Positions 1 through 19,238 of a DNA stretch of 32,000 nucleotides are shown one piece after another. Within the stretch, counting starts at the first letter, position 1; every line of letters starts with the position of its first letter. This DNA comes from Crocosphaera subtropica ATCC 51142 (GTDB lineage: Bacteria; Cyanobacteriota; Cyanobacteriia; Cyanobacteriales; Microcystaceae), in assembly GCF_000017845.1 (NCBI RefSeq), contig NC_010546.1:2280001-2312000 (forward strand), given 5' to 3'. The notes under the pieces are model-generated. The model searched no databases, was not told the origin of the DNA, and saw nothing but the letters and a program-made list of their open reading frames with translations. The position numbers and the translations under genes are program-made.

Positions 1-1844
1 TCATTAAACCCCTCGACGGCAATCATGGCCGAGGTATCACCATCGATATCAATAGTTGGAAAGAAGCAGAAGAAGCCTACGATCTCGCCTCAGAAGAGTC
101 AAAAACCCGTACCGTCATTGTGGAACGGTTCTACAAAGGAAGTGATCACCGTCTTCTGGTGATTAACGGAAAATTGGTGGCCGTGGCCGAGAGGGTTCCG
201 GCTCATGTGATAGGAGATGATAAACATACCATCGAAGAACTCATCGACATCACTAACGAAGACCCTAGACGGGGAGAAGGTCATGATAACGTTTTAACCC
301 GAATTAAAGTGGATAAGACAGTGTTAGGAATGCTCGATAAGCAAGGGTTACGCCTTGACAGCATTCTTGACAAAGGGGAGATCGTCTATTTACGAGCAAC
401 AGCAAACCTTAGCACCGGGGGAAGTGCTATCGATCGCACCGACGATATTCACCCCGAAAACCTCTGGATGGCCGAACGGGTGGCTAAAATTATTGGCCTT
501 GACATAATGGGTATCGATGTGGTGACACCCGATATTACCAAACCCCTCCGAGACGTGGATGGGGTGATCGTTGAGGTCAACGCAGCCCCAGGGTTTCGGA
601 TGCACGTCGCCCCCTCTCAAGGGTTATCCCGTAACGTGGCTGCGCCGGTGATGGATATGCTCTTTCCCCCAGAAAGTCCCAGTCGCGTCCCCATCGTCGC
701 CATTACCGGTACCAATGGGAAGACAACGACCACCCGCTTAACTGCCCATATTTATCGTCAAACGGGGAAAGTGGTGGGTTACACCAGTACGGACGGGGTT
801 TATATTGGGGAATATTTAGTGGAAAAAGGAGACAATACCGGGCCCTTTAGTGCCGGGATGATCCTCAAAGATCCCACCGTGGAAGTGGCCGTATTAGAAA
901 GTGCAAGAGGAGGCATTTTGCGATCGGGTCTGGCCTTTGATACCTGTGATGTGGGTATTGTCCTCAACGTGGCCGCTGATCACCTGGGGTTAGGAGACAT
1001 TAATACCATCGAACAAATGGCCAGGGTGAAAGGGGTGGTCGCAGAAGTGGTTCACGCCGATGGTTACGCAGTGCTTAACGCCGATGATCCCCTGGTGGCT
1101 GCTATGGCTGAACAGGTCAAAGGAAAAGTGGCTTACTTTTCGATGAACCCTGATAACGAAATCATCCACAACCATACCCGACGAGATGGCATGGCTGCCG
1201 TCTACGAAAACGGTTATATTTCTATCTTAGAAGGACAATTTACCCTGAGAATTGAAGAAGCAGTTAATGTCCCGATGACGATGGGGGGAATGGCTCCGTT
1301 TATGATCGCCAACGCCTTAGCTGCTTGTTTGGCCGCCTTCTGTCAAGGGGTCGATATCGAAGACATTCGCCAAGGGGTGAGAACTTTTAAAGCCTCTGCC
1401 AATCAAACCCCAGGGCGGATGAATCTCTTTAATTTAGGGGATTATCACGCTTTGGTCGATTACGCTCATAACCCCGCCGGTTACGAAGCCGTTGGGGAGT
1501 TTGTGAAGAACTGGAAAGGACAACGGTTAGGAGTTGTCGGTGGACCCGGCGATCGCAGGGATGAAGATTTGATTCTGCTTGGTAAAATTGCTGCCAGGGT
1601 GTTTGATCGCATCCTTGTTAAAGAAGATGACGACAAACGTGGACGGGCCCGAGGAGAAGCTGCTGATTTAATTATTGACGGCATTCTCAGCGAAAATGAT
1701 AAAGCAGACTACGAAGCCATTTTAGATGAGACAGAAGCTATCGAATACGGCTTAGATAAGGTGGATAAAGGAGGGTTAGTGGTGATTTTCCCCGAAAGCG
1801 TTACTCGGGCCATTTCACTCATTAATCGACGTAACCCCATCTAA
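1..1844 (+). CDS. cphA: cyanophycin synthetase, 3' portion (5' end lies upstream of the window)
   Basis: The reading frame is open from base 3 (IKPLDGNHGRGITIDI...) and continuous with the 120..1844 ORF. An ATP-grasp-like segment is followed by a Mur-ligase-like module with the P-loop ITGTNGKTTT. Organisation and sequence are typical of CphA. Confidence 0.93.
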   Translation, partial: IKPLDGNHGRGITIDINSWKEAEEAYDLASEESKTRTVIVERFYKGSDHRLLVINGKLVAVAERVPAHVIGDDKHTIEELIDITNEDPRRGEGHDNVLTRIKVDKTVLGMLDKQGLRLDSILDKGEIVYLRATANLSTGGSAIDRTDDIHPENLWMAERVAKIIGLDIMGIDVVTPDITKPLRDVDGVIVEVNAAPGFRMHVAPSQGLSRNVAAPVMDMLFPPESPSRVPIVAITGTNGKTTTTRLTAHIYRQTGKVVGYTSTDGVYIGEYLVEKGDNTGPFSAGMILKDPTVEVAVLESARGGILRSGLAFDTCDVGIVLNVAADHLGLGDINTIEQMARVKGVVAEVVHADGYAVLNADDPLVAAMAEQVKGKVAYFSMNPDNEIIHNHTRRDGMAAVYENGYISILEGQFTLRIEEAVNVPMTMGGMAPFMIANALAACLAAFCQGVDIEDIRQGVRTFKASANQTPGRMNLFNLGDYHALVDYAHNPAGYEAVGEFVKNWKGQRLGVVGGPGDRRDEDLILLGKIAARVFDRILVKEDDDKRGRARGEAADLIIDGILSENDKADYEAILDETEAIEYGLDKVDKGGLVVIFPESVTRAISLINRRNPI

Positions 1845-1870
1845 ACAATAAACTAAACATCATCATCATC

Positions 1871-1910
1871 GGGAAGTGGGATCAGCGATCGCACTTCCTC
1901 TAATTTTGTC
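1871..1910 (+). terminator. candidate intrinsic terminator after cphA
   Basis: Stem GGAAGTG (1872-1878) pairs with CACTTCC (1892-1898). The 13-nt loop overlaps a HIP1 octamer. A T-rich TCTAATTTTGT follows, and the hairpin starts 27 nt after the cphA stop. Confidence 0.4.
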
Positions 1911-2290
1911 TAATATTGAGCTTATTGATAAGTAAACATTATTAAATAATCGATAATAGTTTTAAGATTCAATATATCAAGGATCGATAACATTGATAAT
2001 AAGTCTCAATAAGTAACGAGTTTCCGCCTTTGTGGTATGATAGTTAAGAATGAAAATCTACAGTACGTTTGTCTGCTTTCAAAAAAATAGTCTCTAACCT
2101 CGATAACTTCGTAATCCTATTATCTTTGTGCTTGTGTTAACTCCCTTTTTTTTAATTACTTTGAGCTAATGTACTACTTTTTTGATCAGTACAAATGATT
2201 TTATGTTGACAAAAGTGACACTTTATGATTTCGATCAGAGAAATAATTTTTTTGGTAACATAATGCAAAACAAGGAGGATAACTAGAGCT

Positions 2291-2584
2291 ATGACAACAG
2301 AAGTAATCGAAAAACGGTCTTCGTCCACCTCTACGGTTCGTAAACCAGCCCCTCGGTATCGGGTTTTACTCCATAATGACGACTTCAACTCTATGGAATA
2401 TGTGGTTCAAACCTTGATGCAAACCGTATCGGGAATGACCCAACCCCAAGCCGTTGATATTATGATGGAAGCTCATACCAATGGAACTGCTTTGGTGATT
2501 ACTTGTGCTTTAGAACCAGCAGAATTTTATTGTGAAACATTAAAAAATCACGGTTTAACCAGCACCATTGAACCAGACGAGTAA
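2291..2584 (+). CDS. clpS: ATP-dependent Clp protease adaptor ClpS
   Basis: The 97-aa product carries the ClpS core YRVLLHNDDFNSMEYVVQTL...QAVDIMMEAHTNGTALV. A strong SD (AAGGAGG, 2272-2278) precedes the ATG. Confidence 0.9.
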   Translation: MTTEVIEKRSSSTSTVRKPAPRYRVLLHNDDFNSMEYVVQTLMQTVSGMTQPQAVDIMMEAHTNGTALVITCALEPAEFYCETLKNHGLTSTIEPDE

Positions 2585-2677
2585 GATTGATCACAATATC
2601 AAAAACTCGAAATAATGGTTTAGATATTTATTTCCTAATAATATTATTACTTGAAACCTTAGCATAAATTAAAATCC

Positions 2678-3511
2678 TTGAAACTTAATTTCACCATAAT
2701 TGCTAATTACCCAGCACCTTTTAGGCTGGGAATTTTTATAATTTTCCTCTTGCTTTTATGGCTTCCTCTAGCTATTCCTCTTTATTTTTTATTTAAAAAT
2801 GATCCTAATTTAACTACGATAATAACGATGGCAATACTTTATTTAGAGTTTGTTGCTTTGTTATTTATTTGGAACAAAAAAGTTTATAAAATTAATTATT
2901 GGTGGCGAGACTATGGATTAGTATTTACTCGAAAAAATGGGATTGAGTTGCTCAATGGTTTAAGTTTAGGTTTATTTTTTACCTTTGGATTGTTTATTAT
3001 AGAAGCAATTTTAGGGTGGATTGAATTTGTTCCACCTGCTGATAATTTTACCTTGATTCTTTTTGAAGGTTTATTAAGTGCTTTAGGGATTGGGTTAGCA
3101 GAAGAATTATTTTTTAGAGGTTGGTTATTAGAAGAACTAAAAAAAGATTATCGTCCGAAACTTTTTATTCTTTTAAACGGAATTATTTTTGCAACGTTAC
3201 ACTTTTTAAAGCCGATAGAAGAAATTATTAGGACGTTTCCGCAATTTCCGGCCCTATTTTTATTAGGAATTACATTAGTTTGGGCGAAAATGGGTCATGG
3301 TAACCGTATAGGTGTTTGTATTGGACTACATGGGGGTTTAGTGTGGGGATACTATATATTAAATGTAGGAAAATTAGTGAATTATACAAATAAAGTTTCT
3401 CCCTTAATAACAGGAATTGATAATAATCCCATTGCCGGCATTATGGGATTAATTGGATTAAGCTTGTTAAGTTTTTTGATGAAACAAAAAGTTCAAAAAT
3501 CACGAATATAG
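2678..3511 (+). CDS. CPBP family (CAAX/Abi-type) intramembrane glutamic endopeptidase
   Basis: Multi-pass hydrophobic protein with CPBP motif 1 AEELFFRGW (EExxxR) and motif 2 FATLHF (FxxxH). The start shown is TTG as in the ORF track. The first ATG is about 50 codons downstream, so the 5' end is uncertain. Confidence 0.75.
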   Translation: MKLNFTIIANYPAPFRLGIFIIFLLLLWLPLAIPLYFLFKNDPNLTTIITMAILYLEFVALLFIWNKKVYKINYWWRDYGLVFTRKNGIELLNGLSLGLFFTFGLFIIEAILGWIEFVPPADNFTLILFEGLLSALGIGLAEELFFRGWLLEELKKDYRPKLFILLNGIIFATLHFLKPIEEIIRTFPQFPALFLLGITLVWAKMGHGNRIGVCIGLHGGLVWGYYILNVGKLVNYTNKVSPLITGIDNNPIAGIMGLIGLSLLSFLMKQKVQKSRI

Positions 3512-3582
3512 ATGATATCAAAAGTATTTAATCTGGGTATCTTTATTTTATATTGTTTCACTGAACTCTCCTGTAATAGATT

Positions 3583-4149
3583 ATGATTGACCACAATTCA
3601 AAACGAATACTCAGGTTATTGAGTAATCAATCTAAGTCACGAGGATTTACCCTATTAGAATTATTAATTACTGTGATTATTGTCGGTGTCCTTGCTGCTA
3701 TAGCAATACCCAGTTTAGTTGGTCAAGTAGCTCGTTCTAGGGAAACAGAAGCGATGACAACCATCGGTGCGCTTAATCGCGCTCAAGTTGCTTACCGTTA
3801 TGAATACGGAACCTTTGCATTAATCGGAGAAACGGCAGGGACAATAGTCATACAACCCTCTCAACTGGAAGTTCCCATAACTTCAAAATACTATTCTTAT
3901 CGAGATATTCCCCTTCCAGGAACTGATGAAGAAAGAGCAAAGTATGGTGCAACAGCTTTACCTGAGTATACTAACAGTTTAAAAAATTATAGTGGGGGTA
4001 TCAGATACATCGCTAGTACCAATACTTTTAACACCGTTCTTTGTCGAGGAAATGATCATACAGAAGACAACATCAATAATATTCGTCCTATCTTAAACAT
4101 AGGATCAGGAGGATGGACTTGTTTTGGCAATAGTACAGAACTTAAATAA
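3583..4149 (+). CDS. type IV pilin-like protein (prepilin with class III signal peptide)
   Basis: The leader ends in the canonical prepilin peptidase site SRG|FTLLELLITVIIVGVLAAIAIP, with Glu at +5. A hydrophobic alpha1-N helix follows. Two C-terminal Cys residues (CRGND...WTCFG) fit a D-region disulfide. Confidence 0.8.
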   Translation: MIDHNSKRILRLLSNQSKSRGFTLLELLITVIIVGVLAAIAIPSLVGQVARSRETEAMTTIGALNRAQVAYRYEYGTFALIGETAGTIVIQPSQLEVPITSKYYSYRDIPLPGTDEERAKYGATALPEYTNSLKNYSGGIRYIASTNTFNTVLCRGNDHTEDNINNIRPILNIGSGGWTCFGNSTELK

Positions 4150-4226: not shown

Positions 4227-7200
4227 CTACCAAGGACTACCAATTAAAGTAAACCCACTCCAAAAATAAGGATGTTCTAAAGATTGATCTCCTAATGCTG
4301 CTAGTTGGGGAGGTAAAGATAGACGATTATCAGGAGTGACTAATTGACCCTTTTTTATGTAAACGTCTCCTCTTAATAAGCTTAATTGTGCTTCTCGTAT
4401 GGCTTTAGTTTTTAAGGGAATTTGATTTAATTGTTCATAAAAGCGAGTCATTAAGGCAAGGGTTCCTTCGTCACTCACTTCCCAAAGACTTCCTAACACC
4501 GTTTTAACTTGCGCTAACACTGCAGCACCAGCAAAGCCTAATTCTGCTTCACGATCGCCTAAAGCGGTGCGACAAGCACTTAATACCAGTAATTCAATTT
4601 GTGGATCGCCAAAATTAAATTCTTTGAACTGATCTAATGTCAGTTGATTTTGCCAAAATTGAATATAAGAATTGTCCAATGTTCCCGTTTCAAAATTAGC
4701 ATGGGTGGCTAAATGAATAATCCCAAATTTTCCCGATTGATGAGCTTGCTGTAACTGTTTAAGGGTAAAATTTTCATTGAGAAATGAGTCTCCTTGCCAT
4801 AAGCGATCGGCAATGACCGATAACTCTAAAGGAACCGCCGGTAAAGGATTTTGTTGAGTAAATTCTGATGCACCCATCGCTAAAACTTGTTGCTGCGTCA
4901 TATCTTGATAGCGAGTATCACTCAAGGCTAAACTGGGCATGATACCCATATTATATTGTTCGATTAAAAATTCTGAACCATCATAAAGCGCGGCCAGAGG
5001 AACAGAACGCAATCCTCCCTCTACAATAAAAATAAGGGTGTCAATCTTAGCTGTGTCTAATGCTGTTTTGAGGGGTTGGATAAACCATTGATACAATTGT
5101 TGAGCCGGTTGACCATAAGCACTAGGACGGCGAGGATTAGTAATGGTGCTTTGAAAGTCAGCAACCGTGGAGAGGACTTGCTCACGGGTAACGTCTGTTA
5201 TGGGTTGGCGAATAACTTTACCCGATGCTGTTACTAGCATCAATTCTAATTGATCCTCTGGAGAGCTTTGATTGTTTGGTTGTTGAGGTTGTGCTGCTTG
5301 AGGAGAAGATTGAAACCTCCAGAGGGTTTGAGTGTCAGGGTTTTGAATAGAGGGTGATTGAGGTCGAAAAAAGATATAAATCAAGCCAGGTTTTAAACCG
5401 GTTAAGGTTTGACCTTCTTGTAAAATAGTCTGAGTTTGTTCAAGATTTAAAGGGGATACGGGTTCAATGCCTAAATGGTTGGCAAATTCTATGGTAAACC
5501 CTTGCTCAATATTTCTCAGCATAGCGCGATCGCTGTCTAAATTCGTCGTTAAACCGGTTTCGTTGGGTGATTGTCCTAACTCTGAGGTTTCAGTGTAAGC
5601 ATTATTTAAGTTAACGACAAATTCCAACCCAGGAGGTTTCGGGGTTGTAGGGGAAGCAGAGGGAGCAGAGGGAGCAGAGGAAGCAGAGGAAGCAGAGGAA
5701 GCAGGGGGAACAGAGGAAGCAGAGGGAGCAGGGGGAACAGAGGAAGCAGGGGGAGCAGAGGGAGCAGGGGGAACAGAGGAAGCAGGGGGAGCAGAGGGAA
5801 CAGGGGGTACTGGAGGTTCTGGGGTCATAAACTCAATGGCAACCCCATTAATGGTAATGGTTGAATTATTATCAGTTCCTGCGCTATTAAGGATATCTGG
5901 GGTCAACTGGTCGATTTGATCGGGGTCAAAAGGAATACCACCAATGATCACCTCTCCTCTTATCTCTCCATTGGTAGCTAAGGTTTCGAGATTAATCATC
6001 CCACCAGTGCCATTAGTGGATGAAGTATTAATGGTTTCTACTTCAATGATGGGAACGTTATCATTCGTATTTCCCTGGGCCGTAAGAGTAACTGAACCAC
6101 CACCGTCAGCAAAGGAAGTGTCAATATGACCGACAGTAACCTGACAACTATTCATTTGACGACAGCCATTTCCGAGCCGTTCAATGGTTAAGTCTCGTCC
6201 TGGAGCAATAATTGCGTCATCAGAATTCATTCTGAAACTGCCTACAGCCACTGCATCTGCATTAGCTCGAAAAATAATACTTCCTGAACCGGGTTGAAAG
6301 GTCAGTGCATCATCTGATAAATCTTCGATAGTGATATCGTTTTCGGCTTCGAGGATAATATTAGTGTTTCCAGATAATCCTTCTAATTCTGACTCAAAAA
6401 TTATCGTATTATTGGGAGGATCATTCCTTAAGATTTGTCCAATTTGACCGTTATTGTTCCCTGCAAAGGTATCGATGCCATCGGTTCCACTATCTCCCTC
6501 ACCGTCTTTGATAAGAATATTTTCAGGATCTAAAAGTAGGGTTCCAAAATCACCATTAACAGCACTGGTGTCGACAGTTCCTCGAAAAATTAGCTGTTGT
6601 TTGCCCGAAACTTCTACGAACCCCCCATTTCCTGCAATATTGCCCCCTCGACTGCTAATATTTCCATAAAATCCTGTGATCTCCTCTGACCAAACCGTGA
6701 CTTGACCCCCGTTACCCTGATTCATACTATCGCTGCGAAGGGTTGAACCTGAGTTAATTAAAGTACGTTGAGCAGTGGGAATGGTTGTTTGTCCTCGATA
6801 ATCTCCTCCCACTCTGATGGTTCCCCCTCCGGTGTTTCCTGACCCATCAATTTGAGCATTGATGACTGCAATGCGATCGCCGATCAAGGTTACGTTACCC
6901 CCGACTCCACTGGGTGAAGATGCGTCTAAAGTTCCTGATGTAACTAGGGTTGCTGGTGTGTTGGGAAGGTTAGCATTGTTTTCGGTTAATTGAATGCTTT
7001 GCTCGTTATTGGTACTAATATTTAAGTCTAAAGTTTGACTGCCTTCTGTTAGTAACGTCGGTAAATCTTGGGGTTTAATGTTTAATAATTCGGCATTGGT
7101 TTCTCTCGGTGCAGTAATTTCTAAACTGATGAGACTGCCGGGTTGAGAAATTCTAATGCGGTTGGTTCCTGGAATAGCTGAAATGGTAATATTTCCCCCT

Positions 7201-7829
7201 GGTGCTTTGAGAGTTCCCGTATTAACAATAGTGTTTCCTATTAGGGTAAGGTTATGACCCTCTGCAACGGTTAAATTCCCTGTATTAATAATATGACCGG
7301 ACTGCGTTAAATCAAAGGCAAATTGAGAGGGATCACCGATTAGTAATTGATAATTATTCGTTCCTACAGCATTAAACCAATAATTATTATCAAATCCCAT
7401 CCCTGTAGCAGTTATAGCGGTAAAATCAGCCGGTAAATTAAGCTGAACATTAGGACCAAAAACAATCCCTGCAGGATTCATTAAAAATAGGTTAGGGTTG
7501 CCACCAGTTATGGTAATCAGACCATTAATAATCGAAGCATCACCCCCAACGATTCGGGTTAAAATATTACGAATTTGAGGATTAGCTAAAAAGTTAGCAA
7601 TTTGCTCCCTATTCAGTCCAAATTTTTCTAAACTATGGAAAAGATTTGTCCCGTCTCCTGATAAACTTCCCCCTTCTATATTGAATTGATTTCCTTCTTG
7701 ATTAACAATGGTTCCTGTGCCATCATTTGCAGGGGTAATGGACTGACTTAAGGTAGGATTAATATGATTAATTTCTGTTAACCCTATCAACATAAAAACT
7801 AAATATTTTGTTATTTTTATTAACTTCAT
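4227..7829 (-). CDS. two-partner-secretion exoprotein (TpsA) with filamentous-haemagglutinin-type N-terminus and C-terminal CHAT protease domain
   Basis: Signal-like N-terminus. TPS domain motifs NLFHSLEKF and NPNLFLMNPAGIVFG. G/N/T-rich beta-helix-type repeats include GNGGFVEVSGKQ...GTLLLDPENILI. A Pro/Ser linker follows. The C-terminal CHAT-type region (QLYQWFIQPL...LRSVPLAAL) carries HLATHA (His1043, nt 4701-4703) and LVLSAC (Cys1086, nt 4572-4574). An SD (GAGGAG) lies upstream of the ATG. Confidence 0.85.
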   Translation of the reverse strand: MKLIKITKYLVFMLIGLTEINHINPTLSQSITPANDGTGTIVNQEGNQFNIEGGSLSGDGTNLFHSLEKFGLNREQIANFLANPQIRNILTRIVGGDASIINGLITITGGNPNLFLMNPAGIVFGPNVQLNLPADFTAITATGMGFDNNYWFNAVGTNNYQLLIGDPSQFAFDLTQSGHIINTGNLTVAEGHNLTLIGNTIVNTGTLKAPGGNITISAIPGTNRIRISQPGSLISLEITAPRETNAELLNIKPQDLPTLLTEGSQTLDLNISTNNEQSIQLTENNANLPNTPATLVTSGTLDASSPSGVGGNVTLIGDRIAVINAQIDGSGNTGGGTIRVGGDYRGQTTIPTAQRTLINSGSTLRSDSMNQGNGGQVTVWSEEITGFYGNISSRGGNIAGNGGFVEVSGKQQLIFRGTVDTSAVNGDFGTLLLDPENILIKDGEGDSGTDGIDTFAGNNNGQIGQILRNDPPNNTIIFESELEGLSGNTNIILEAENDITIEDLSDDALTFQPGSGSIIFRANADAVAVGSFRMNSDDAIIAPGRDLTIERLGNGCRQMNSCQVTVGHIDTSFADGGGSVTLTAQGNTNDNVPIIEVETINTSSTNGTGGMINLETLATNGEIRGEVIIGGIPFDPDQIDQLTPDILNSAGTDNNSTITINGVAIEFMTPEPPVPPVPSAPPASSVPPAPSAPPASSVPPAPSASSVPPASSASSASSAPSAPSASPTTPKPPGLEFVVNLNNAYTETSELGQSPNETGLTTNLDSDRAMLRNIEQGFTIEFANHLGIEPVSPLNLEQTQTILQEGQTLTGLKPGLIYIFFRPQSPSIQNPDTQTLWRFQSSPQAAQPQQPNNQSSPEDQLELMLVTASGKVIRQPITDVTREQVLSTVADFQSTITNPRRPSAYGQPAQQLYQWFIQPLKTALDTAKIDTLIFIVEGGLRSVPLAALYDGSEFLIEQYNMGIMPSLALSDTRYQDMTQQQVLAMGASEFTQQNPLPAVPLELSVIADRLWQGDSFLNENFTLKQLQQAHQSGKFGIIHLATHANFETGTLDNSYIQFWQNQLTLDQFKEFNFGDPQIELLVLSACRTALGDREAELGFAGAAVLAQVKTVLGSLWEVSDEGTLALMTRFYEQLNQIPLKTKAIREAQLSLLRGDVYIKKGQLVTPDNRLSLPPQLAALGDQSLEHPYFWSGFTLIGSPW
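5655..5825 (-). repeat. in-frame tandem array of about 19 copies of a 9-bp unit (plus strand AGCAGAGGR / AACAGAGGA) encoding the Pro/Ser/Ala linker of TpsA
   Basis: Read directly from the sequence. There are 17 near-identical 9-mers from 5655 to 5807 plus two degenerate units. They translate on the minus strand to PPVPSAPPASSVPPAPSAPPASSVPPAPSASSVPPASSASSASSAPSAPSA. Confidence 0.9.
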
Positions 7830-7877
7830 TTTCTCTTAACTCCTCGTTTCATAGTCATTTTACTTTTCTTCTAAAAC

Positions 7878-9611
7878 CTAAGGAGAATAATTAATTTGAA
7901 AATATAAGCCTTTTTCTTGAAGATTGTTACCGAAATGGGGTAAAGAAATTAAAGGAATTCCATAATCTAAACGTAGGGTTAATCCTTCAATGGTAGCAGC
8001 ATCATTCCAAATTAATCCTAATCCAGTTCCCATGATAAACTTTTTATTTTGTGAATTATCATTGTCTGTTGCAAACCAGACTGTTCCCATATCAATAAAA
8101 GGAGCAATTTCCAGAGTTGATTCATTTACACTATTATCCAGAATGTTAATTCTATTTTCTACAGATAATCTAAAGCCATTGTCCCCAAATCTAATATTTT
8201 GTCGATACCCTCTAACAGATTCTGCTCCTCCTATAATAAACCATTGATCCGGTAATAAAGGATCAGGAGTTAACTGTAATTCTCCTCGAATAATCATCAA
8301 ATGATTGTCATCCCATCGCTGTACTCTCTGTCCTTGAAATAACCAACTAAAAAAGCGACTATCAGGGGTTGAACCTGAGCGAATGGTCGCATCAAATAAA
8401 TCAACTCCCCAATTAAATTGAGAGCGTAAGAACCAAAATCCTTGTTCATCTCGACTTAAATAATCTTGTCCCAATTGAACAATGGTAGAGCGATTTCTAG
8501 CGTTTTCAATGGGTGCAATTTCTCCATTAATTAAGGTTTGTCCATTTTGATAACGAAACCCCACAGATAAGGCAAATTCATCGGATAAATTACGCCATAA
8601 TGGTTGACGAAAACTCATTTCATAAACTTGTTTGTTTCCTGTAATATTAAAATCATCTAAAGGCTCTTGTGTAATTCTTGTCCAAGTCGGAATTACTCGA
8701 ATTTGTAGGGTTCCTTCTTGGGGATTTAAAGGGAGTTGATAAATCGCATCGAGGGTATTTCCTCCATCAGTAGTTGAGCGATAATAAGACAAAGAAATAT
8801 TATCTCCCCATCCTGTTAAATTGTTGTTTTGTAAAAAAGTTCCAGTCCTATCTGAGCCAATACTGGGAGGCGAAAAGTTATCAATTCCTAGACCAAATTG
8901 CCATCTTTCACTTTCTTTTACTGTCACAACGATAATACTTAATCCCGGTTTTCCTGATGCTTTAAGGTTAGCATCAACTGTGTCTAACAGTGGATTTAAA
9001 GAGAGTCGTCTTAACTGTTTTTCTAATTGGGTAATATTAAGGGGTGAAGTAATTCCTAAAAGAAGGCGATCGCAAAGATAACCTAGGTGTAAATTTTTTC
9101 TACCGATTAAGTTTAATTCAGAAAGATTTCCCTCAATAATAGTGATTTTAGCCTCTGTATTTTTTGTTATGCTAGATAAAGGCTGGATAGTGGCTTTTGA
9201 AGTAATATAACCTTCTGTTAAATAATAGTTAGTAATTGTATCCGCTAAGATTTGATAAACTTGGTTGAATGTTTCTAAATTTAAGTTTTTTCCTTGATAA
9301 GTTTGAATAATATTATTGACTTCTGGAAAATCCATAATTTGCTGTGTGGTGAAGGCAGTATTTCCTGTTACTATAATCTCAATTGTTTTTTTCTCAACTA
9401 TCAAAGAGAATAAAAAATTGTTGTCAACTAAATCAGTTTTAGATTGAAAAATTAGAGGACAATTTTCTATGGTTTTTATCTCTTCAGCATTGGTTTTAAT
9501 AATAGAATTACTACTATCTTTTTCTGGTATAGATTCCATTTCATTTAGAGAGTTAGCAAATACTTCAATCTGTATGATCACTAATAATAAGCATAAACCC
9601 AGAAAAACCAT
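7878..9611 (-). CDS. ShlB/FhaC/HecB-family outer-membrane transporter (TpsB) with POTRA region
   Basis: Signal-like N-terminus MVFLGLCLLLVIIQIEVFANS. POTRA-type segment IEIIVTGNTAFTTQQI...YYLTEGYITSKATIQP...ITIIEGNLSELNLIGRKNL. A long beta-rich C-terminal barrel-like region follows. The gene ends 48 nt upstream of tpsA and is co-oriented with it. Confidence 0.85.
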   Translation of the reverse strand: MVFLGLCLLLVIIQIEVFANSLNEMESIPEKDSSNSIIKTNAEEIKTIENCPLIFQSKTDLVDNNFLFSLIVEKKTIEIIVTGNTAFTTQQIMDFPEVNNIIQTYQGKNLNLETFNQVYQILADTITNYYLTEGYITSKATIQPLSSITKNTEAKITIIEGNLSELNLIGRKNLHLGYLCDRLLLGITSPLNITQLEKQLRRLSLNPLLDTVDANLKASGKPGLSIIVVTVKESERWQFGLGIDNFSPPSIGSDRTGTFLQNNNLTGWGDNISLSYYRSTTDGGNTLDAIYQLPLNPQEGTLQIRVIPTWTRITQEPLDDFNITGNKQVYEMSFRQPLWRNLSDEFALSVGFRYQNGQTLINGEIAPIENARNRSTIVQLGQDYLSRDEQGFWFLRSQFNWGVDLFDATIRSGSTPDSRFFSWLFQGQRVQRWDDNHLMIIRGELQLTPDPLLPDQWFIIGGAESVRGYRQNIRFGDNGFRLSVENRINILDNSVNESTLEIAPFIDMGTVWFATDNDNSQNKKFIMGTGLGLIWNDAATIEGLTLRLDYGIPLISLPHFGNNLQEKGLYFQINYSP

Positions 9612-9906: not shown

Positions 9907-12510
9907 TTAAAAGGATAAAGGAATGGGTCTTTCAATACCATACCCTTGAGCATAATCAACCCCTATTTCTTCTAAAATTTGTAAAATTTCTTGGTCTTCA
10001 ACCCATTCTGCAACGGTTTCCATATTCATAACATGACCAATACGATGAAAACAATCAATAAGACCATAATTAACTGAATCTTTTGTCAAATTTTTAACAA
10101 AACTGCCATCAATTTTTAAATAATCAACGGGTAAATGTTTAAGATAAGACAAAGAACTCATACCACTTCCAAAATCATCGAGAGCAAAGTAACAACCTAG
10201 CCGTTTGATCGCTTCAATCAGTTGAACAGCTTCAGTAAGATTAGTAATAGCAGTGGTTTCTGTAATTTCAAAACATAGATGTTGTGGATTAACTTTATAG
10301 GAGGATAACTGTTCTTCTATAAAATGACAAAGTTGGCTATTTTTTAAACTAATGGCAGATAAATTAATAGTATATAAACTCTTAAACTCTGTTGTATCTA
10401 GATCAGGTTGTGTCTGATAAGCTTCACTATAAACTTTGAAAAAGTTACTAATTACCCATTGATCAATGTCTGCCATTAAATTATAGCGTTCAGCAGCTGG
10501 AATAAAAGCGAATGGAGAAACTAAATTGCCCGACTCATCCAATAATCTTAATAAAATTTCATGGTGAACTTTCTCAGGAGATTGGATAGAAATAATTTTC
10601 TGAGAATAAAGACGAAAACGGTTGTCAGTCAGTGCATTATTTAACCGAACAATCCATTGACTTTGACCAATTTGTTGAGTAACTTCATAATCACTATCTT
10701 GATAAACATAAACACAGTTTCTTCCCCTTTCTTTGGCTGCATAACAAGCAGCATCTGCTGCATTTAAGAAAGACGTAATGGTTTTAATGTCTTGATTAAT
10801 GGCAACAATTCCGATGCTAACACCGATGGAAAAAACTTGGTTATCCCAAGTAAATCGAAAGTTTTTAACTAATTGCCTCAAGTTATTGGCGATGGCCTCT
10901 GCTTTTTTAAGAGAACATCCTTTAAGTAATAAACCAAATTCGTCTCCTCCTAATCGTGCTAAAATATCACTACTACGAACCCTGGCCTGTAATAAATGAG
11001 TCACTTCTTTTAATAATTCATCCCCTGCCACATGACCACAAGTATCATTAATGACTTTAAATTGATCTAAATCTAAATAACATAAAATATGTTCGATGTT
11101 TTCGGATTTATAAGCCTCTAAAGCTAGGGTTAATTGCTTTTCTAATTCCCTACGATTAACTAATCCCGTTAAAGGGTCATGACTAGCTTCCCATGATAAT
11201 TGATGGGCTAATTGTGAGGCTTGAGTAATATCCCTAAAGATCAAAACAGTCCCTAATATTTGATAATTTTGTCCTCGAATGGGGGTAATAACCATATCGA
11301 TTTCATATTGCTCTCTATTTTTTGCCTGTAAAATACCTGTTCTTCTTTCTCTTTGATTTTGACTGCTTCTTAGCACTTCATAAATGGGATTATCTAGGGA
11401 ATTTCCTCCGTTATCTATGAGTTTAAAAATTTTAGAAATGGGTTGATAGATAGCTTCCTTAGTAGTCCATCCTGTTAGTTGCTGAGCAATGGGATTAAAG
11501 TCTTGAATAATGCCTTGGGAATCAGTGGTAATGACAGCTTCACCAATAGAGTTTAGGGTAACTTTTGCTAATTCTTTTTCTTCAAATAAAGCTCGTTCTA
11601 CTAATTTTCGTTCGGTAATATTTTCAATGGTTCCTAAAACCCCTACAATATTACCCTTACTATCTTTTATGGGAATTTTGTTGGTATTGTACCAAACCTC
11701 TTGTCCTTCTGGATTCCGTTTTTGCTCGACAAAATTTAATTGAGGTTTCCCTGTATTAATAACACGAAGATCCTGTTCTCGATAATAATTAAGATTATTA
11801 TTTGGGGGATCTAAATGTTTATTATTAGGGTCATTATAAATATCATAATCCGTCTTCCCTCTTACTTGTTCTGGGTCTACAATTCCAGCAGCTTTTGCCC
11901 ATAAACGATTACATCCTAAAAAAATGGAATTTGTATCTTTCCAAAAAATTAGTTGAGGAATATTATCTAAAACTAATTGTAAAAAGGCTTTTTTTTCTTT
12001 CAACTCTTGTTCGACTTGGTAGCGAATTGTAATATCACACCAAGATACCATTAGTAAGTTTTGGTTCCATTCTAAAGGTTGTAAGAATATACTAGCATAG
12101 AGATAATTATTATCTTGTTTTTTGAGTTTTACTTCATAGTTACCCTTTGATTTTTGTGTTTTTAATTGCTGAATTAATAATTCTTTTTGAGGACTTTCCT
12201 CACACAAATCTAGAAAGGAGAAGGTTAACAAACTTTCTAAAGAAAACCCTAATAAAGAAAGAGCTTTTGGGTTAGCATAATTGATGCTTCCGTTGATACT
12301 TTGTATTAAAAGAATCGGCACAGGAATGGTGTTAGAAAATTCCTGAAATTGTTGAATTGGATTAGAATTTTCTAAAATTGAAGGTTTATCAAGTAAAGAA
12401 ATTAATTCTTCTAAAACTGCTGATTCAATTTTTCCCGATGCTTGGCAATATTGATCTAACTTTTGCCAAGTTTTTCGGTTAATATTAATGCTGACAGATT
12501 TCTCATTCAT
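9907..12510 (-). CDS. multi-PAS diguanylate cyclase/phosphodiesterase (GGDEF + EAL) signalling protein
   Basis: GGDEF motif LARLGGDEFGLLL (nt 10936-10950) with an RxxD I-site (RSSD) five residues upstream. EAL-domain motifs HHEILLRL, FEITETTAI, ALDDFGSGMSSLSYL, KIDGSFV, AEWVEDQE and AQGYGIERP. About three PAS-like segments precede the GGDEF domain. Confidence 0.9.
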   Translation of the reverse strand: MNEKSVSININRKTWQKLDQYCQASGKIESAVLEELISLLDKPSILENSNPIQQFQEFSNTIPVPILLIQSINGSINYANPKALSLLGFSLESLLTFSFLDLCEESPQKELLIQQLKTQKSKGNYEVKLKKQDNNYLYASIFLQPLEWNQNLLMVSWCDITIRYQVEQELKEKKAFLQLVLDNIPQLIFWKDTNSIFLGCNRLWAKAAGIVDPEQVRGKTDYDIYNDPNNKHLDPPNNNLNYYREQDLRVINTGKPQLNFVEQKRNPEGQEVWYNTNKIPIKDSKGNIVGVLGTIENITERKLVERALFEEKELAKVTLNSIGEAVITTDSQGIIQDFNPIAQQLTGWTTKEAIYQPISKIFKLIDNGGNSLDNPIYEVLRSSQNQRERRTGILQAKNREQYEIDMVITPIRGQNYQILGTVLIFRDITQASQLAHQLSWEASHDPLTGLVNRRELEKQLTLALEAYKSENIEHILCYLDLDQFKVINDTCGHVAGDELLKEVTHLLQARVRSSDILARLGGDEFGLLLKGCSLKKAEAIANNLRQLVKNFRFTWDNQVFSIGVSIGIVAINQDIKTITSFLNAADAACYAAKERGRNCVYVYQDSDYEVTQQIGQSQWIVRLNNALTDNRFRLYSQKIISIQSPEKVHHEILLRLLDESGNLVSPFAFIPAAERYNLMADIDQWVISNFFKVYSEAYQTQPDLDTTEFKSLYTINLSAISLKNSQLCHFIEEQLSSYKVNPQHLCFEITETTAITNLTEAVQLIEAIKRLGCYFALDDFGSGMSSLSYLKHLPVDYLKIDGSFVKNLTKDSVNYGLIDCFHRIGHVMNMETVAEWVEDQEILQILEEIGVDYAQGYGIERPIPLSF

Positions 12511-12879
12511 AACTAGATTTTAACATTTAGAAAATCAGCAGTTGTTTGCCAATTCGTCTATTCAAATGATAACTATTTATCGGATTATAGGCGAATAAAT
12601 TAACTCTGTTATAACTTACCGTAACTGTATTGTCACTGTTTATGTTCTCAAAGAGAATTATTTACAGTCTTATTTTACTGAGGCAGACAGAAGACATAAG
12701 ATAAATGTTCCGTCTCCCGTCATAACTTGCAAAGTGTAGGGAGTTCGTTTACAAATATTTATATATTAAATTCATGAAACCTATAATTGTTTCTTGTTAA
12801 GCTTTATGGAAACGTTGTACCTTATGTTAAACCGCCTAATCTAACCTTAGTTAAGTATGAGGAGATAGAAGAGAAGTCT

Positions 12880-14742
12880 ATGAATTATCACACCTTTGAT
12901 CCTCTCAACACTAATACAATATCCCCTATTTTAACCTGTCTTACGGATATTTATAAACGCTATCAACCCATCAATGAAGGCAATGTTGCTACTTATATCC
13001 CAGAACTAGCGAAAGCGAATCCTGATCTGTTTGGCATTTGTATTACCACCCCAGATGGACAAATTTATCAAGTGGGTGAATCTCAACATTCCTTTACCAT
13101 TCAATCCATTTCTAAACCCTTTGTCTATGGGTTAGCTTTAGGGGATCATGGAGTCGAGAAAATCATGAGTAAAGTAGGAGTAGAACCCACCGGAGAAGCG
13201 TTTAACTCCATCGTTTTTGATGAAGAAAATAACCGTCCTTATAATCCGATGGTCAATGCAGGGGCGATCGCTACTACGGCTTTAATTAAAGGAGAAGGGT
13301 ATGAACAACGGTTTAACCGTATTTTATCCATGTTTGAAGGGTTCGCAGGACGTTCTTTAACCGTTGATGAAGCCGTGTTTGAGTCCGAAAGGTCAACGGG
13401 CCACCGCAATCGGGCCATCGCCTATTTAGAGTTAAATGCAGGGATGTTAGAAGGCAACCTAGAGGAACATCTTGACCTCTATTTTCGCCAATGTTCTATT
13501 TTAGTGACAGCCAAAGATTTAGCGGTAATGGCCGCAACCTTAGCCAATAATGGTATTAACCCCATTACCCAACAACAAGCGGTTAACCCAGAGGAAGTCC
13601 GTGCCATTCTCAGCGTCATGGCCAGTTGTGGAATGTACGATTTTTCGGGAGAATGGCTCTATCGCATCGGTTTACCGGCTAAAAGTGGGGTAGGAGGCGG
13701 TATTATTGCCGTTTTACCGGGTCAGTTTGGCATTGGAACGTTTTCACCCCTTTTAGATCCTAGGGGTAATAGTGTCCGAGGAATTAAAGTGTGTGAGGAA
13801 CTGTCCCAACGGTTTAAGTTTCATTTATTTGATAGTCATCCTGTTTCCCAAACTTGCGTCAGTCGCACCTATACTGGGGCGATGGTATCTTCAAGACGAC
13901 AAAGACGAGCATTTCAAAGGGATTTTTTAGATCAAGCAGGGGAGAAAATTTTAGTTTACGAACTCAAAGGGGATCTTTATTTTGCCACCCTAGAAAAGTT
14001 AACCCGTCAGCTACAAAGTAACCAACAAACCGCTAAATTTATTGTTCTAGATGGTCGTCGGGTGGGTAATGTGAATAGTAGTGCCATTACCTTACTTTCG
14101 GAAATTAAACAATGGTGTTTAAGTCAAGAAATTACCTTGATGTTGACAGGATTTGAGCCAAAAACAACGGTAAGACTTAAAGCTAATGGTTGGACAGATG
14201 AAGGGTTTGTGGACAATATTGATACAGCCTTAGAATGGTGTGAAAATTGTTTATTAGCGGAGCAAGATTACCAAGATATAACGGTTAAAGATCAGTTGTC
14301 ATTAGAAGAGATGGATATCTTTAAAGCATTTACAGCCGAAGAAATGACAGCGATCGCTCCTTTATTTTCTGAGGTTTCCTATCAACCTAAGGACTTTATT
14401 ATTCGGGAAGGAGAAAAAAGCGATCGTTTATTTTTGTTAGCTAAAGGAATGACAACGGTTTCGTTACAACTGTCTCAAACAGAACAAAGAAAACGCTTAA
14501 CTACCTATATTCCTGGGATTGCTTTTGGAGAATTAGCCCTTTTTGATATTAACGTGAGTCAAAGAACGGCTGATATTGTGGCAGATACTGAAGTCATTTG
14601 TTATGTTTTAGAATTCGATAGATTAAAGACTTTACTGAAGACAAAACCTGAAGTTTATATCAAGCTACTGCAAACCTTTGGAAAAACCCTTGTTAATACC
14701 ATTAAACGGGCAACCTTAGAAATTCGTAGTTTATCTGTTTAA
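12880..14742 (+). CDS. glsA: glutaminase A fused to a STAS domain and a cyclic-nucleotide-binding (CAP/CNB) domain
   Basis: Glutaminase core with the Ser-x-x-Lys motif TIQSISKPF, plus NPMVNAGAI and GLPAKSGVGGGI. STAS-like segment at about 13945-14245 (KILVYELKGDLYFAT...VLDGRRV...). CNB domain at about 14302-14700 with phosphate-binding cassette FGELAL...QRTA (14524-14571). I prefer ATG 12880 (GGAG 15-20 nt upstream) over the TTG at 12787 given in the ORF track. Confidence 0.88.
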   Translation: MNYHTFDPLNTNTISPILTCLTDIYKRYQPINEGNVATYIPELAKANPDLFGICITTPDGQIYQVGESQHSFTIQSISKPFVYGLALGDHGVEKIMSKVGVEPTGEAFNSIVFDEENNRPYNPMVNAGAIATTALIKGEGYEQRFNRILSMFEGFAGRSLTVDEAVFESERSTGHRNRAIAYLELNAGMLEGNLEEHLDLYFRQCSILVTAKDLAVMAATLANNGINPITQQQAVNPEEVRAILSVMASCGMYDFSGEWLYRIGLPAKSGVGGGIIAVLPGQFGIGTFSPLLDPRGNSVRGIKVCEELSQRFKFHLFDSHPVSQTCVSRTYTGAMVSSRRQRRAFQRDFLDQAGEKILVYELKGDLYFATLEKLTRQLQSNQQTAKFIVLDGRRVGNVNSSAITLLSEIKQWCLSQEITLMLTGFEPKTTVRLKANGWTDEGFVDNIDTALEWCENCLLAEQDYQDITVKDQLSLEEMDIFKAFTAEEMTAIAPLFSEVSYQPKDFIIREGEKSDRLFLLAKGMTTVSLQLSQTEQRKRLTTYIPGIAFGELALFDINVSQRTADIVADTEVICYVLEFDRLKTLLKTKPEVYIKLLQTFGKTLVNTIKRATLEIRSLSV

Positions 14743-14978: not shown

Positions 14979-15731
14979 ATGAAAAAAAGCTCAACTTTAA
15001 ACCCTTGGCAAAAACTTAGTTTGTTCCTTTCTCTTCTCGTTTTAGGCGTTTCTTTTCCCTTATTACCGACCCTATCTTCTCCCTTATTAAATCGTTCTAT
15101 TCTTAGCTTAAATTTTCCCGATACCGGTGATAGAGGGGCTCCGAAAAAAAGCGCAGGAGGAGGAACCCGTAGTGACGATGAAACCTGTTTAACGAATGAA
15201 GAGAATGAACCCCCCTTAGTTGTTTTGATGCCAAACCGAGAAAATAAAGGAAAAACTGCCAGCGATACCCCAACCTTTTATGGCTATATCCCTACCACAA
15301 CTGCAACCCAAGGGGAATTTGTTTTAGTTGATGCAGATAATAATGAAGTGTATTATACTCAATTTCCTTTACCTTCAACCCCAGGGATTATTAAGCTAGA
15401 AATTCCCAAAACAGTAGCCTTAAAACCCGGTAGTTATAATTGGTCATTGATGGTTATTTGTGATTCTCGTTATCGAAATCGAGATAAATATGTAGAGGGT
15501 TCTTTGGAATATGTTGATCTCGCCCAAGGATTGGAAAATGAAAATCAAGCGCAACCTTCCTTAGAAAAAGCCCAAGTTTATGCTGATGCGAGTCTCTGGT
15601 TTGAAACCCTTGACACCTTAGCTCAAATAAAAGAAGAAAATCCCCAAGAATGGCAAGAACTTTTAACCTCAGTGGGGTTAGAAATGTTAGCAGAAGTTCC
15701 TATGGTTGATTGTTGTCAATCTGATAATTAA
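14979..15731 (+). CDS. secreted DUF928-family protein (cyanobacterial)
   Basis: The N-terminal hydrophobic signal-like segment is followed by the DUF928-like pattern GDRGAPKKSAGGGTRSD..C...LVVLMP...TPTFYGYIP...GEFVLVD...PGSYNWSLMVICD...YADASLWFETLDTLA...WQELLTSVGL. The assignment is from remembered family consensus. Confidence 0.75.
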   Translation: MKKSSTLNPWQKLSLFLSLLVLGVSFPLLPTLSSPLLNRSILSLNFPDTGDRGAPKKSAGGGTRSDDETCLTNEENEPPLVVLMPNRENKGKTASDTPTFYGYIPTTTATQGEFVLVDADNNEVYYTQFPLPSTPGIIKLEIPKTVALKPGSYNWSLMVICDSRYRNRDKYVEGSLEYVDLAQGLENENQAQPSLEKAQVYADASLWFETLDTLAQIKEENPQEWQELLTSVGLEMLAEVPMVDCCQSDN

Positions 15732-16174
15732 TAAGAATAAGTTGGGTTTCTTAATAAAACCAGAGAGGATTTTTGAAAGATAAACTCACCATAGTCTGCT
15801 AAATCATCAAGACCAAGAAAATTAAGTACAATTTCGGTGATTAAAGTCATGAATATATATAGAAGTAACTTTTTCCATTTAACTTGCATTGTTTTAATCT
15901 CCGCACTCTTATCAGATGTTTTTGGGGGTTCATTATATTCATAGGTTTGACTGCGGGGATCTTATGCACAAAAAAATAACTCTGAGAATGAGGACAGTTG
16001 GCAACTTTGTCAGCTACAAAAAGTGATCCTTTGAAGCAATCGGTAATGGGGAACAGATAATTAAACTAGGGTATAGTTTAACGACTTGCAAAGTGCTGTA
16101 TGAAGAATTAACAGAAATTTCGGTAAAGATCGGTTTAAAATAAGCTAACGATCATTAAGTTTTCTTCAATCTTT

Positions 16175-18418: not shown

Positions 18419-18464
18419 AATTGTAGATTATTCTTTTTATCATTTACGAATTATTATATATATT

Positions 18465-19238
18465 ATGTATCAGCTACTTTTTTTAGGTTCAGGTTCAGCA
18501 TTTACCGTCGGGACTGATAATTTTCATTCTAATATATTTCTTATCACTGAAACAGGGAAAAAATTATTAATTGATTGTGGGTCTGATCTTCGTTTTTCTT
18601 TGCATAAAGAAGGGTTTTCCCATCGAGATATTACAGATATTTATATTAGTCACTTACATTCTGATCATGCTGGAGGGTTAGAATATGTTGGATTAACCAC
18701 TAAATTTGATCCTCGATGTGATAAACCTAATTTATATTTAAGTCATGATATTGCTAGTAAAATTTGGGAAAATACCCTATCAGGAGGAATGGGATCGATT
18801 GAAGGAACAATTACCAGTTTAGAGAGTTTTTTTAACGTTCATGCTGTTGATAATAACCGATGCTTTAGTTGGCAAAATATTAACTTTGAATTAGTGAAAA
18901 CGATTCATATCAATAACGGAACTTATGTGATGCCAACTTATGGTTTATTTTTTGAAGTTAATCATCAGAAAATTTTTATCACCAGTGATACCCAATTATG
19001 TTATCAAGAACTTGAAACTTACTATCAGAAAGCTGATATTATTTTTCATGATTGTGAAACCTCAAAATATCCTACCCCTGTTCATTCACATTATCAAGAA
19101 TTGGTTAAGTTACCCAATCAGATAAAAGGAAAAATATGGTTATATGGGTATCAACCAGGAGAACTTCCGAATGCAGAAAAAGATGGTTTTTTAGGGTTTG
19201 TTAACAGAGGAGATAAATTTGTAATTCAAGATATTTAG
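18465..19238 (+). CDS. MBL-fold metallo-hydrolase
   Basis: N-terminal LLFLGSGSAF and the HxHxDH motif SHLHSDHAGG (nt 18651-18668). It starts 46 nt after the cyclase stop on the same strand. Confidence 0.8.
   Translation: MYQLLFLGSGSAFTVGTDNFHSNIFLITETGKKLLIDCGSDLRFSLHKEGFSHRDITDIYISHLHSDHAGGLEYVGLTTKFDPRCDKPNLYLSHDIASKIWENTLSGGMGSIEGTITSLESFFNVHAVDNNRCFSWQNINFELVKTIHINNGTYVMPTYGLFFEVNHQKIFITSDTQLCYQELETYYQKADIIFHDCETSKYPTPVHSHYQELVKLPNQIKGKIWLYGYQPGELPNAEKDGFLGFVNRGDKFVIQDI

Follow-up and report, generated by a model that had tools for sequence, protein, structure and literature searches.

Type Vb, or two-partner, secretion (TPS) is understood almost entirely from pathogen adhesins, cytolysins and contact-dependent inhibition (CDI) toxins, and what is understood of CHAT proteases comes from cytoplasmic enzymes under tight gating, namely separase, Craspase, SAVED-CHAT and HetF. 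A gene pair of Crocosphaera subtropica (formerly Cyanothece sp.) ATCC 51142 brings the two together. It lies in a stretch of 32,000 nucleotides (contig NC_010546.1, positions 2,280,001 to 2,312,000), referred to hereafter as the window, and consists of tpsB, encoding a transporter of the Omp85 family, and tpsA, encoding its putative passenger, which ends in a CHAT module. The locus is a compact, fully paired member of a very large cyanobacterial family uniting type Vb secretion with CHAT.

The closest described systems on the secretion side each share part of this layout. In FhaB/FhaC of Bordetella, a TpsB-dependent beta-helical TpsA carries a Pro-rich region and then a conserved C-terminal region, which stays in the periplasm and controls maturation. 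The cyanobacterial TpsA is arranged in the same way, but the FhaB prodomain is no enzyme and is degraded by SphB1 and other proteases, whereas here the C-terminal region is a CHAT protease with a dyad predicted to be intact. EtpA/EtpB of enterotoxigenic Escherichia coli and HMW1/HMW1B of Haemophilus include the proteins of solved structure that are most closely related to the TPS domain and shaft; unlike the protein described here, EtpA and HMW1 are glycosylated adhesins of pathogens without a C-terminal protease domain. CdiA/CdiB also has the TPS architecture, and the best solved relative of the TpsB in the window is CdiB (6wim, E 2e-12). In CdiA, the C-terminal half waits in the periplasm for a trigger. 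In contrast to CdiA, the present TpsA has neither a variable toxin tip nor an immunity gene, and its C-terminus is the conserved element. Maturation of TPS proteins by proteolysis has been described, and LepA, of the LepA/LepB pair of Pseudomonas aeruginosa, is the one TpsA that a 2017 review of TPS systems, itself without any CHAT or caspase term, lists as a protease (PMC5422565). LepA differs in being a host-directed virulence factor, and it was not retrieved as a relative in the searches made.

On the protease side, Csx29 (the Craspase protease of type III-E CRISPR), SAVED-CHAT, separase and HetF have the CHAT fold and the His-Cys dyad in common with the module, at 9–18% identity. Their setting is the cytoplasm, where RNA-guided complexes, cyclic nucleotides or cell-cycle factors activate them. 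In Craspase, TPR-CHAT is encoded together with gRAMP/Cas7-11 and a CRISPR array, whereas TpsA has no TPR repeats and there are no cas genes among the open reading frames (ORFs) of the window; the likeness is at the level of the fold. A precedent for a caspase fold outside the cytoplasm comes from secreted clan CD peptidases such as gingipain RgpB, but RgpB belongs to family C25, takes the type IX secretion route and has broad degradative roles. DdvA of Myxococcus xanthus is a parallel in location, being a solved, periplasmic TPR-CHAT protein whose long flexible linker is the proposed site of a signal-induced self-cleavage (PMC11506125). It is an inner-membrane anti-sigma factor with a transmembrane helix, is bound to an extracytoplasmic function sigma factor, and has TPR repeats but neither a TPS domain nor a beta-helix. 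An earlier note on this DNA, made from the letters alone, had taken the known CHAT proteases to act inside cells, a view that DdvA has put out of date.

In a sequence search, tpsA (4227–7829, minus strand) was found to be 100% identical to cce_2241, for which a literature search returned nothing. The earlier note had placed a tpsB of the ShlB/FhaC type 48 nt upstream of a 1200-aa tpsA, and the ORFs confirmed both the spacing and the length. The tpsB gene (7878–9611, minus strand) encodes a protein of 577 aa in which an N-terminal signal peptide is followed by POTRA domains and a ShlB-type barrel. Its Pfam matches (ShlB PF03865, E 2.5e-37; POTRA_2, E 9.3e-8; Omp85, E 5.8e-15) agree with the proposed type, and the L6 motif VRGY was read from its translation (GGAESVRGYRQN). 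An ortholog of TpsB, 77% identical, occupies the same position in a locus of a Crocosphaera metagenome-assembled genome (L001). The spacer between the two genes (7830–7877, minus strand) holds a GAGGAG Shine-Dalgarno-like motif before the tpsA start, and no terminator-like site was called in these 48 nt. Lying on the same strand with a gap of this size, tpsB and tpsA probably form one operon; a promoter and terminator scan gave counts not above shuffled expectation, so that it is the 48-nt gap that speaks for the operon.

TpsA has 1200 aa and comprises a signal peptide, a TPS domain, a beta-helix, a Pro/Ser/Ala spacer and the CHAT module. The call of a Sec signal peptide (aa 1–29; 7743–7829, minus strand) is based on a hydrophobic N-terminus, on a helix at aa 3–18 in an AlphaFold model of the whole protein computed from 50 homologs, and on a conserved cleavage context. 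Cleavage is predicted between ...LSQ and SITPANDGTGT, and the context, AQ followed by (S/P)I(T/A)PA.DGTGT, is kept after hydrophobic N-termini across TpsA homologs. The TPS secretion domain (aa 37–238; 7116–7721, minus strand) matched Pfam PF05860 with E 9.7e-37 (score 127.7 against a cut-off of 33.5) and NCBIfam adhes_NPXG (TIGR01901) with E 2.3e-17, and contains the motifs NPNL and NPAGI. Both NLFHSLEKF and NPNLFLMNPAGIVFG are present in the TpsA translation. The domain aligned with the secretion domains of EtpA and HMW1 in a PDB sequence search.

The right-handed beta-helix shaft (aa 31–665, including the TPS domain; 5835–7739, minus strand) is all-beta in the model, with pLDDT mostly 80–94. 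By sequence it matched EtpA (8cpk, E 4e-24; 8vba over aa 36–570, E 1e-20) and HMW1 (2odl, E 2.5e-14). A Foldseek search with the AlphaFold model likewise gave EtpA as the best match (8vbb, E 6e-17), with HMW1, HxuA and HpmA also found. The beta-helix that the earlier note had read from the repeats was thus supported by sequence, model and fold. The only cysteines of TpsA outside the catalytic one, C556 and C562, both lie in the shaft (C556-x5-C562).

Between the shaft and the CHAT module lies a disordered Pro/Ser/Ala spacer (aa 670–763; 5541–5822, minus strand; pLDDT <50), whose 94 residues include 25 P, 20 S and 14 A, in agreement with the Pro/Ser linker noted earlier. Its DNA contains a tandem repeat at 5649–5807 (period 18/27 nt, 8.5 or 5.5 copies, 86% matches), which brings with it a local rise in GC and a GC-skew spike (0.28, bin 5001–6000). 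The spacers of the three closest orthologs have Pro-rich repeats too. These differ in sequence, and spacer length therefore probably changes quickly. Pro-rich segments ahead of the CHAT module were common among 118 homologs, the median best 40-aa window having 23% Pro. A CPP[YFD]C mini-motif stood directly ahead of the module in 13 of 120 homologs, which form a Coleofasciculus-like subgroup (P0012, P0023, P0026, P0029, P0032, P0034, P0038, P0060, P0062 and P0066 are among the carriers). It may form a small disulfide loop, recalling the C-terminal anchoring loop of HMW1.

The CHAT module (aa 764–1200, 437 aa; 4230–5540, minus strand) combines an alpha/beta subdomain at its N-terminal end with a catalytic subdomain that is caspase-like. 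The Pfam CHAT match (PF12770, aa 908–1198) had E 2.8e-66 and 224 bits against a cut-off of 24, and covered model positions 3–289 of 289; together with the PF05860 match it bore out the two domain calls of the earlier note. The conserved C-terminal unit is about 430 aa long, and so begins about 140 residues ahead of the Pfam boundary. Modelled alone on 88 homologs, the module gave an AlphaFold pLDDT of 88.9 and a pTM of 0.87. The best Foldseek match of this model was Csx29/TPR-CHAT (8eex_B, E 4e-14, TM about 0.52), followed by SAVED-CHAT, separase, DdvA (8rw5 and 8rot, E about 3e-7) and gingipain RgpB (4ief, E 3e-6). The top 45 PDB fold matches also took in CHAT-containing proteins of the ciliary central apparatus, with caspases coming later (E about 1e-3). 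Sequence and profile searches of the PDB with the CHAT part gave no match, and the links to Csx29, separase and DdvA come from the fold search only.

The proposed catalytic residues are His1043 (codon CAT, 4701–4703, minus strand) in HLATHA and Cys1086 (codon TGT, 4572–4574, minus strand) in LVLSACRTALG. Their numbering was confirmed, and the assignment relies on invariance and on position at strand ends. H1039, H1043 and C1086 did not vary among the 88 homologous modules and hardly varied among 50 full-length homologs, and in the model the dyad residues lie at or just after beta-strands (E301–307 with H309, E346–349 with C352, in module numbering). C1086 is the sole Cys of the module. Regular expressions for the two motifs matched 117 of 120 homologs for the His and 116 of 120 for the Cys; the non-matches were two fragments without the module, a His-motif variant in which the His is kept (P0096), and one true loss of the Cys (P0061). 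The C-terminal ending, ...HPYYW.aFt.iGsPW, recurs across the family. The dyad is apparently intact, and the module is predicted to be an active protease.

A TPS domain, a Sec signal peptide, a beta-helical passenger and an adjoining Omp85-type TpsB were thus found together. We conclude, on the strength of domain matches and structural models, that the locus can be securely regarded as a genuine type Vb secretion pair whose C-terminal CHAT looks catalytically competent. Translocation of TpsA over the outer membrane via TpsB is predicted from the same features.

The architecture is not rare; it is widespread in cyanobacteria and has already been annotated by machine, as 'CHAT domain-containing protein' or 'filamentous hemagglutinin family protein'. 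Among the best 120 clusters at 90% identity, 118 had both PF05860 and PF12770 and the other two were partial N-terminal fragments; wherever the source was named, it was cyanobacterial. A search of 1.84 billion representatives at 50% identity gave 6041 proteins at E<=1e-30. In the best 150 of these, 149 matched in at least two stretches spanning TPS/shaft and CHAT, the closest one end to end, and lengths ran from 661 to 4880 aa, the shortest being a partial N-terminal fragment. The conserved part is the CHAT module, about 45–55% identical across genera, and the shaft is variable (893 to 4880 aa). In the literature searched, only a passing mention, in Trichodesmium, was found on the combination of TPS and CHAT, and no paper treating it. 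What is new is a class of TPS passenger and an extracytoplasmic CHAT clade for which we found no functional study, together with a possible link to CHASE2 and DUF928.

This link emerged from a comparison of 84 CHAT-module genes in 88 loci, in which neighbours were counted only within the flank sequence at hand. A search of genome contigs with the single protein returned one locus, that of the Crocosphaera metagenome-assembled genome; further loci were taken from contigs encoding homologs and from a metagenome scan. Where a TpsB homolog was present in the flank (12 of the 84 genes), it was mostly contiguous with the CHAT gene (8 of the 12 within 500 nt, binomial p 1.6e-8). The window holds one of the complete tpsB/tpsA pairs, and its TpsA is among the shortest members of the family. 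Two loci from large filamentous-cyanobacterial genomes (L004, 1–13928; L007, 2505–14497) had TPR-CHAT, TPS-CHAT and TPS-CHAT genes in tandem with no tpsB near, which suggests that few TpsB transporters serve many TpsA paralogs.

DUF928 was found in 12 of the 88 loci and near 11 of the 84 genes, and CHASE2 in 14 loci and near 13 genes. When the count was confined to the 29 genes flanked by 5 kb or more on each side, 8 had one or both nearby. DUF928 adjoined the CHAT gene directly in L023, L027 and L060, and a CHAT gene adjoined or nearly adjoined DUF928/CHASE2 in L008, L023, L025, L027, L033, L049, L060 and L065. Pfam verified the order TIR-CHASE2, 10 nt, DUF928, TPS-CHAT (2512 aa) and a convergent TpsB in L033; Pkinase-CHASE2, 12 nt, DUF928, 91 nt and TPS-CHAT in L027; DUF928, about 30 nt, TPS-CHAT and TpsB in L023; and a signal-peptide CHAT (482 aa), DUF928, CHASE2 and a SpoIIE phosphatase in L060. 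On a closely related, Crocosphaera-like metagenome contig (L009), an MBL gene and then an ortholog of the CHASE2-cyclase of the window followed within about 2.5 kb of the CHAT gene end.

The CHASE2 receptors near CHAT genes differed in their cytoplasmic domains, which were TIR, Ser/Thr kinase, GGDEF, cyclase, a second CHAT or none (L033, 5996–7951; L027, 1318–3411; L038, 16253–18430; L077, 7664–9373; L050, 6638–8995; L065, 1112–3559). In L050 and L065 the CHASE2 proteins carried an N-terminally fused, cytoplasmic CHAT domain. Common to the DUF928 proteins are a signal peptide, the motif GGG[ST]R..C and C-terminal cysteines; the one in the window ends in CC. Aligned with those of 12 loci, it showed P..G.P....GGG[ST]RG..C soon after the signal peptide and then PL(T)AL(I)P...GLT...PTFWFY(V)P, and many of these proteins end in PL..CC. 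The Arg-containing motif could be a processing site, which is speculation.

The module also occurs outside TPS proteins. Thirteen complete ORFs of 436–528 aa had the CHAT module and no TPS domain, and the 11 N-termini that were read all showed a Sec signal peptide, with nothing for export across the outer membrane (436–496 aa; L039, L043, L051, L060, L061, L065, L066, two in L076, L082 and L085). These are presumably a family of periplasmic CHAT proteases, apparently undescribed. A signal-peptide TPR-CHAT also exists (P0172). The modules of the TPS-fused and the signal-peptide-only proteins have the same partner genes, and the two are about equally similar to each other: module identity across the two classes was 0.52–0.63, as against 0.54–0.72 within them, one near-identical pair aside. 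As a test for separate clades, which might have pointed to different compartments, this comparison is not decisive.

These observations bear on where the CHAT end works. The earlier note had read delivery across the outer membrane from the architecture; this was overstated, since that is one of two topologies and the same module occurs in proteins with a Sec signal peptide only and beside DUF928 and CHASE2. We slightly favour the reading that the CHAT end is a regulated protease on the periplasmic side, signalling or self-releasing. A periplasmic location is suggested because the signal-peptide-only CHAT proteins have no outer-membrane export device and because the recurrent partners are a Sec-exported DUF928 protein and a CHASE2 receptor with a periplasmic sensor domain; retention is inferred from these genes and paralogs, by analogy. 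Signalling or release is to be expected, rather than bulk proteolysis, because the characterised CHAT enzymes are gated and site-specific. Retention has precedents, as the C-termini of FhaB (its prodomain), CdiA, CdrA and HMW1 stay periplasmic. In the case of CdrA, release follows periplasmic cleavage of the C-terminal tail by LapG (PMC5422565).

According to the favoured reading, TpsA would be exported by Sec, and TpsB would bind the TPS domain and thread the beta-helix to the cell surface. The CHAT module would arrive last and remain behind TpsB in the periplasm, with the spacer running through the pore as its tether; a long Pro-rich spacer would be what crossing both the pore and the thick cyanobacterial wall needs. 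In the periplasm the module would act as a regulated, site-specific cysteine protease and not as a toxin or an agent of bulk degradation. Its likely substrates would be its own spacer, with shedding of the surface filament, and/or secreted DUF928 and the periplasmic ectodomain of CHASE2. The CHASE2 receptors would relay to varied cytoplasmic outputs, a cyclase in the window and a kinase, TIR, GGDEF or CHAT elsewhere. The variable surface shaft would then be the sensing or adhesive part and the constant CHAT end the output, the reverse of the logic of polymorphic toxins.

Several findings weigh against periplasmic retention or against the partner genes on which it draws. Most TPS-CHAT genes are orphans, with no TpsB homolog in the flank, and the association with DUF928/CHASE2 was seen in only about a quarter of the CHAT loci. 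DUF928 lay within 500 nt of the CHAT gene in 3 of 11 cases (binomial p 0.015), a value that concerns adjacency only, co-occurrence being counted without a genome-wide background. In the window, the DUF928 and CHASE2 genes are 5–9 kb from tpsB, with two unrelated genes between, and in Gloeothece verrucosa (L089) and Aphanothece sacrum (L090) no CHAT gene was found within 10 kb of the DUF928-CHASE2-MBL operon orthologous to that of the window, which weakens the link for this locus. The ShlA and ExlA cytolysins are fully exported TPS passengers with functional C-terminal domains. So is LepA, the one protease known among TpsA proteins (PMC5422565). Only slightly less likely is the alternative that the whole of TpsA passes the outer membrane, as TPS passengers do by default, and that the protease, on a beta-helical stalk or released, cuts surface proteins (own or foreign), matrix, or components of grazers or phages. 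The family is extremely poor in Cys (0.14% over 197,643 residues), and a Cys-poor protein with a single Cys in the CHAT module would suit passage through TpsB. In other proteins the same module is joined to repeats of kinds usual at the surface or outside the cell (DUF11, Big_1, cadherin-like and HAF). There are also secreted clan CD proteases, gingipain RgpB being a weaker structural match of the module, and an extracellular target would call for no immunity gene. Against full export, the 437-aa alpha/beta module would have to remain unfolded in the periplasm during the threading of a shaft of 630–4000 aa, the signal-peptide-only paralogs have no device for crossing the outer membrane, and CHASE2 and DUF928 belong to the periplasm or inner membrane. 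No exoproteome evidence for a TPS-CHAT protein was found in the literature searched. The characterised CHAT proteases (separase, Csx29, SAVED-CHAT and HetF, PMC9457339) are also tightly regulated and substrate-specific.

A narrower role, in which the CHAT domain is a cis-acting release peptidase only, cutting its spacer once, on whichever side of the membrane, and so freeing a beta-helix adhesin, appears unlikely, although the caspase-like releasing peptidases of polymorphic toxins and the MARTX CPD offer a comparison. Caspase-like domains do occur as releasing peptidases in secreted multidomain proteins (Zhang et al., 2012; PMC3482391), self-cleavage of the linker has been proposed for DdvA (PMC11506125), and the constant layout, from a variable extracytoplasmic N-terminal part through a Pro-rich spacer to a C-terminal CHAT, would fit such a role. 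However, releasing peptidases usually stand upstream of the cargo domain and not at the extreme C-terminus, the signal-peptide-only CHAT proteins have almost nothing to free, and the DUF928/CHASE2 neighbourhood would be left unexplained. A module that is catalytically dead or structural, serving as a plug, anchor or binding domain, is very improbable: the Cys is lost in the rare homolog P0061 and the active site of the DdvA CHAT is incomplete (PMC11506125), but both His and the Cys are conserved throughout the modules compared. The reading to which we give least credence takes the pair for a CDI-like system or polymorphic toxin that delivers CHAT, as the toxin, into neighbouring cells. It would fit the TPS architecture and the closeness of TpsB to CdiB, and Tox-Caspase domains are known in other secretion contexts; these are listed for T2SS, T6SS, T7SS and PVC, however, and not for T5SS (Zhang et al., PMC3482391). 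The C-terminal domain is conserved and the shaft variable, the opposite of polymorphic toxins, and no VENN-like demarcation motif was seen. Nor does an immunity-like gene follow tpsA, as the earlier note had observed: the tpsA strand has only ORFs of 34 aa or less, none of them plausible between or after the genes, and the next gene, pilin-like (3583–4149, plus strand), is convergent at a distance of 77 nt. PADLOC gave no match for TpsA, TpsB or the DUF928 protein, and for the CHASE2 protein a generic cyclase similarity only.

The favoured, periplasmic reading can be carried further, to an unlikely proposal in which TPS-CHAT is the outer arm of outside-in proteolytic signalling across the cyanobacterial envelope. 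The variable beta-helix, displayed by TpsB, would sense contact, damage or a foreign agent, and the tethered periplasmic CHAT would be activated. CHAT would then cut DUF928, with its GGG[ST]R motif just past the signal peptide, or the CHASE2 ectodomain, and CHASE2 would switch on its cytoplasmic effector, here the cyclase and elsewhere TIR, Ser/Thr kinase, GGDEF or a second CHAT. If true, this would be a bacterial counterpart, on a type V scaffold, of a cascade from protease to pro-ligand to receptor of the Toll/Spaetzle type.

Further genes surround the pair in the window. Sharing the strand of tpsB and 295 nt upstream of it is a PAS x3-GGDEF-EAL gene (9907–12510, minus strand), and the order PAS-GGDEF-EAL, tpsB, tpsA is kept in the Crocosphaera metagenome-assembled genome. 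Control by cyclic di-GMP through this gene, by analogy with CdrA/LapG, was considered and rejected as a feature of the family, a homolog being present in 2 of the 88 CHAT loci and the synteny being confined to Crocosphaera. A 651-aa fusion of glutaminase, STAS and cyclic-nucleotide-binding domains (12787–14742, plus strand) is followed directly by a DUF928 gene with a signal peptide (14979–15731, plus strand; Pfam E 1.9e-50), a CHASE2-class III nucleotide cyclase gene (16175–18418, plus strand; CHASE2 E 1.9e-64, Guanylate_cyc E 4e-24) and an MBL-fold, Apyc1-like gene (18465–19238, plus strand) for a probable cyclic-nucleotide phosphodiesterase. These last three form an operon (14979–19238, plus strand), whose order is kept in Gloeothece verrucosa and Aphanothece sacrum, and the position of the glutaminase fusion beside them suggests a local neighbourhood of cyclic-nucleotide signalling. 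The DUF928 and CHASE2-cyclase proteins are possible partners of TpsA, though within the window the link to DUF928 is weak. The pilin-like gene next to tpsA is of type IV (Pilin_GH) with an N-methylation motif. The other genes in 120–4149 comprise a Mur-ligase/RimK-type ORF resembling cyanophycin synthetase, ClpS and a CAAX/Rce1-like membrane protease, and the ORF at 23157–23621 had no Pfam match.

An exported CHAT end would be the first case of a CHAT protease at work outside a cell; a retained one would mean that this TpsA has a periplasmic protease built in, with a possible coupling to CHASE2 receptors. We know of no ligand for the CHASE2 sensor domain. With a culturable host and a short TpsA, ATCC 51142 is suited to experiments. 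Either outcome would give TPS systems a new functional class and offer a handle on DUF928 and CHASE2, which are widespread unknowns of cyanobacteria.

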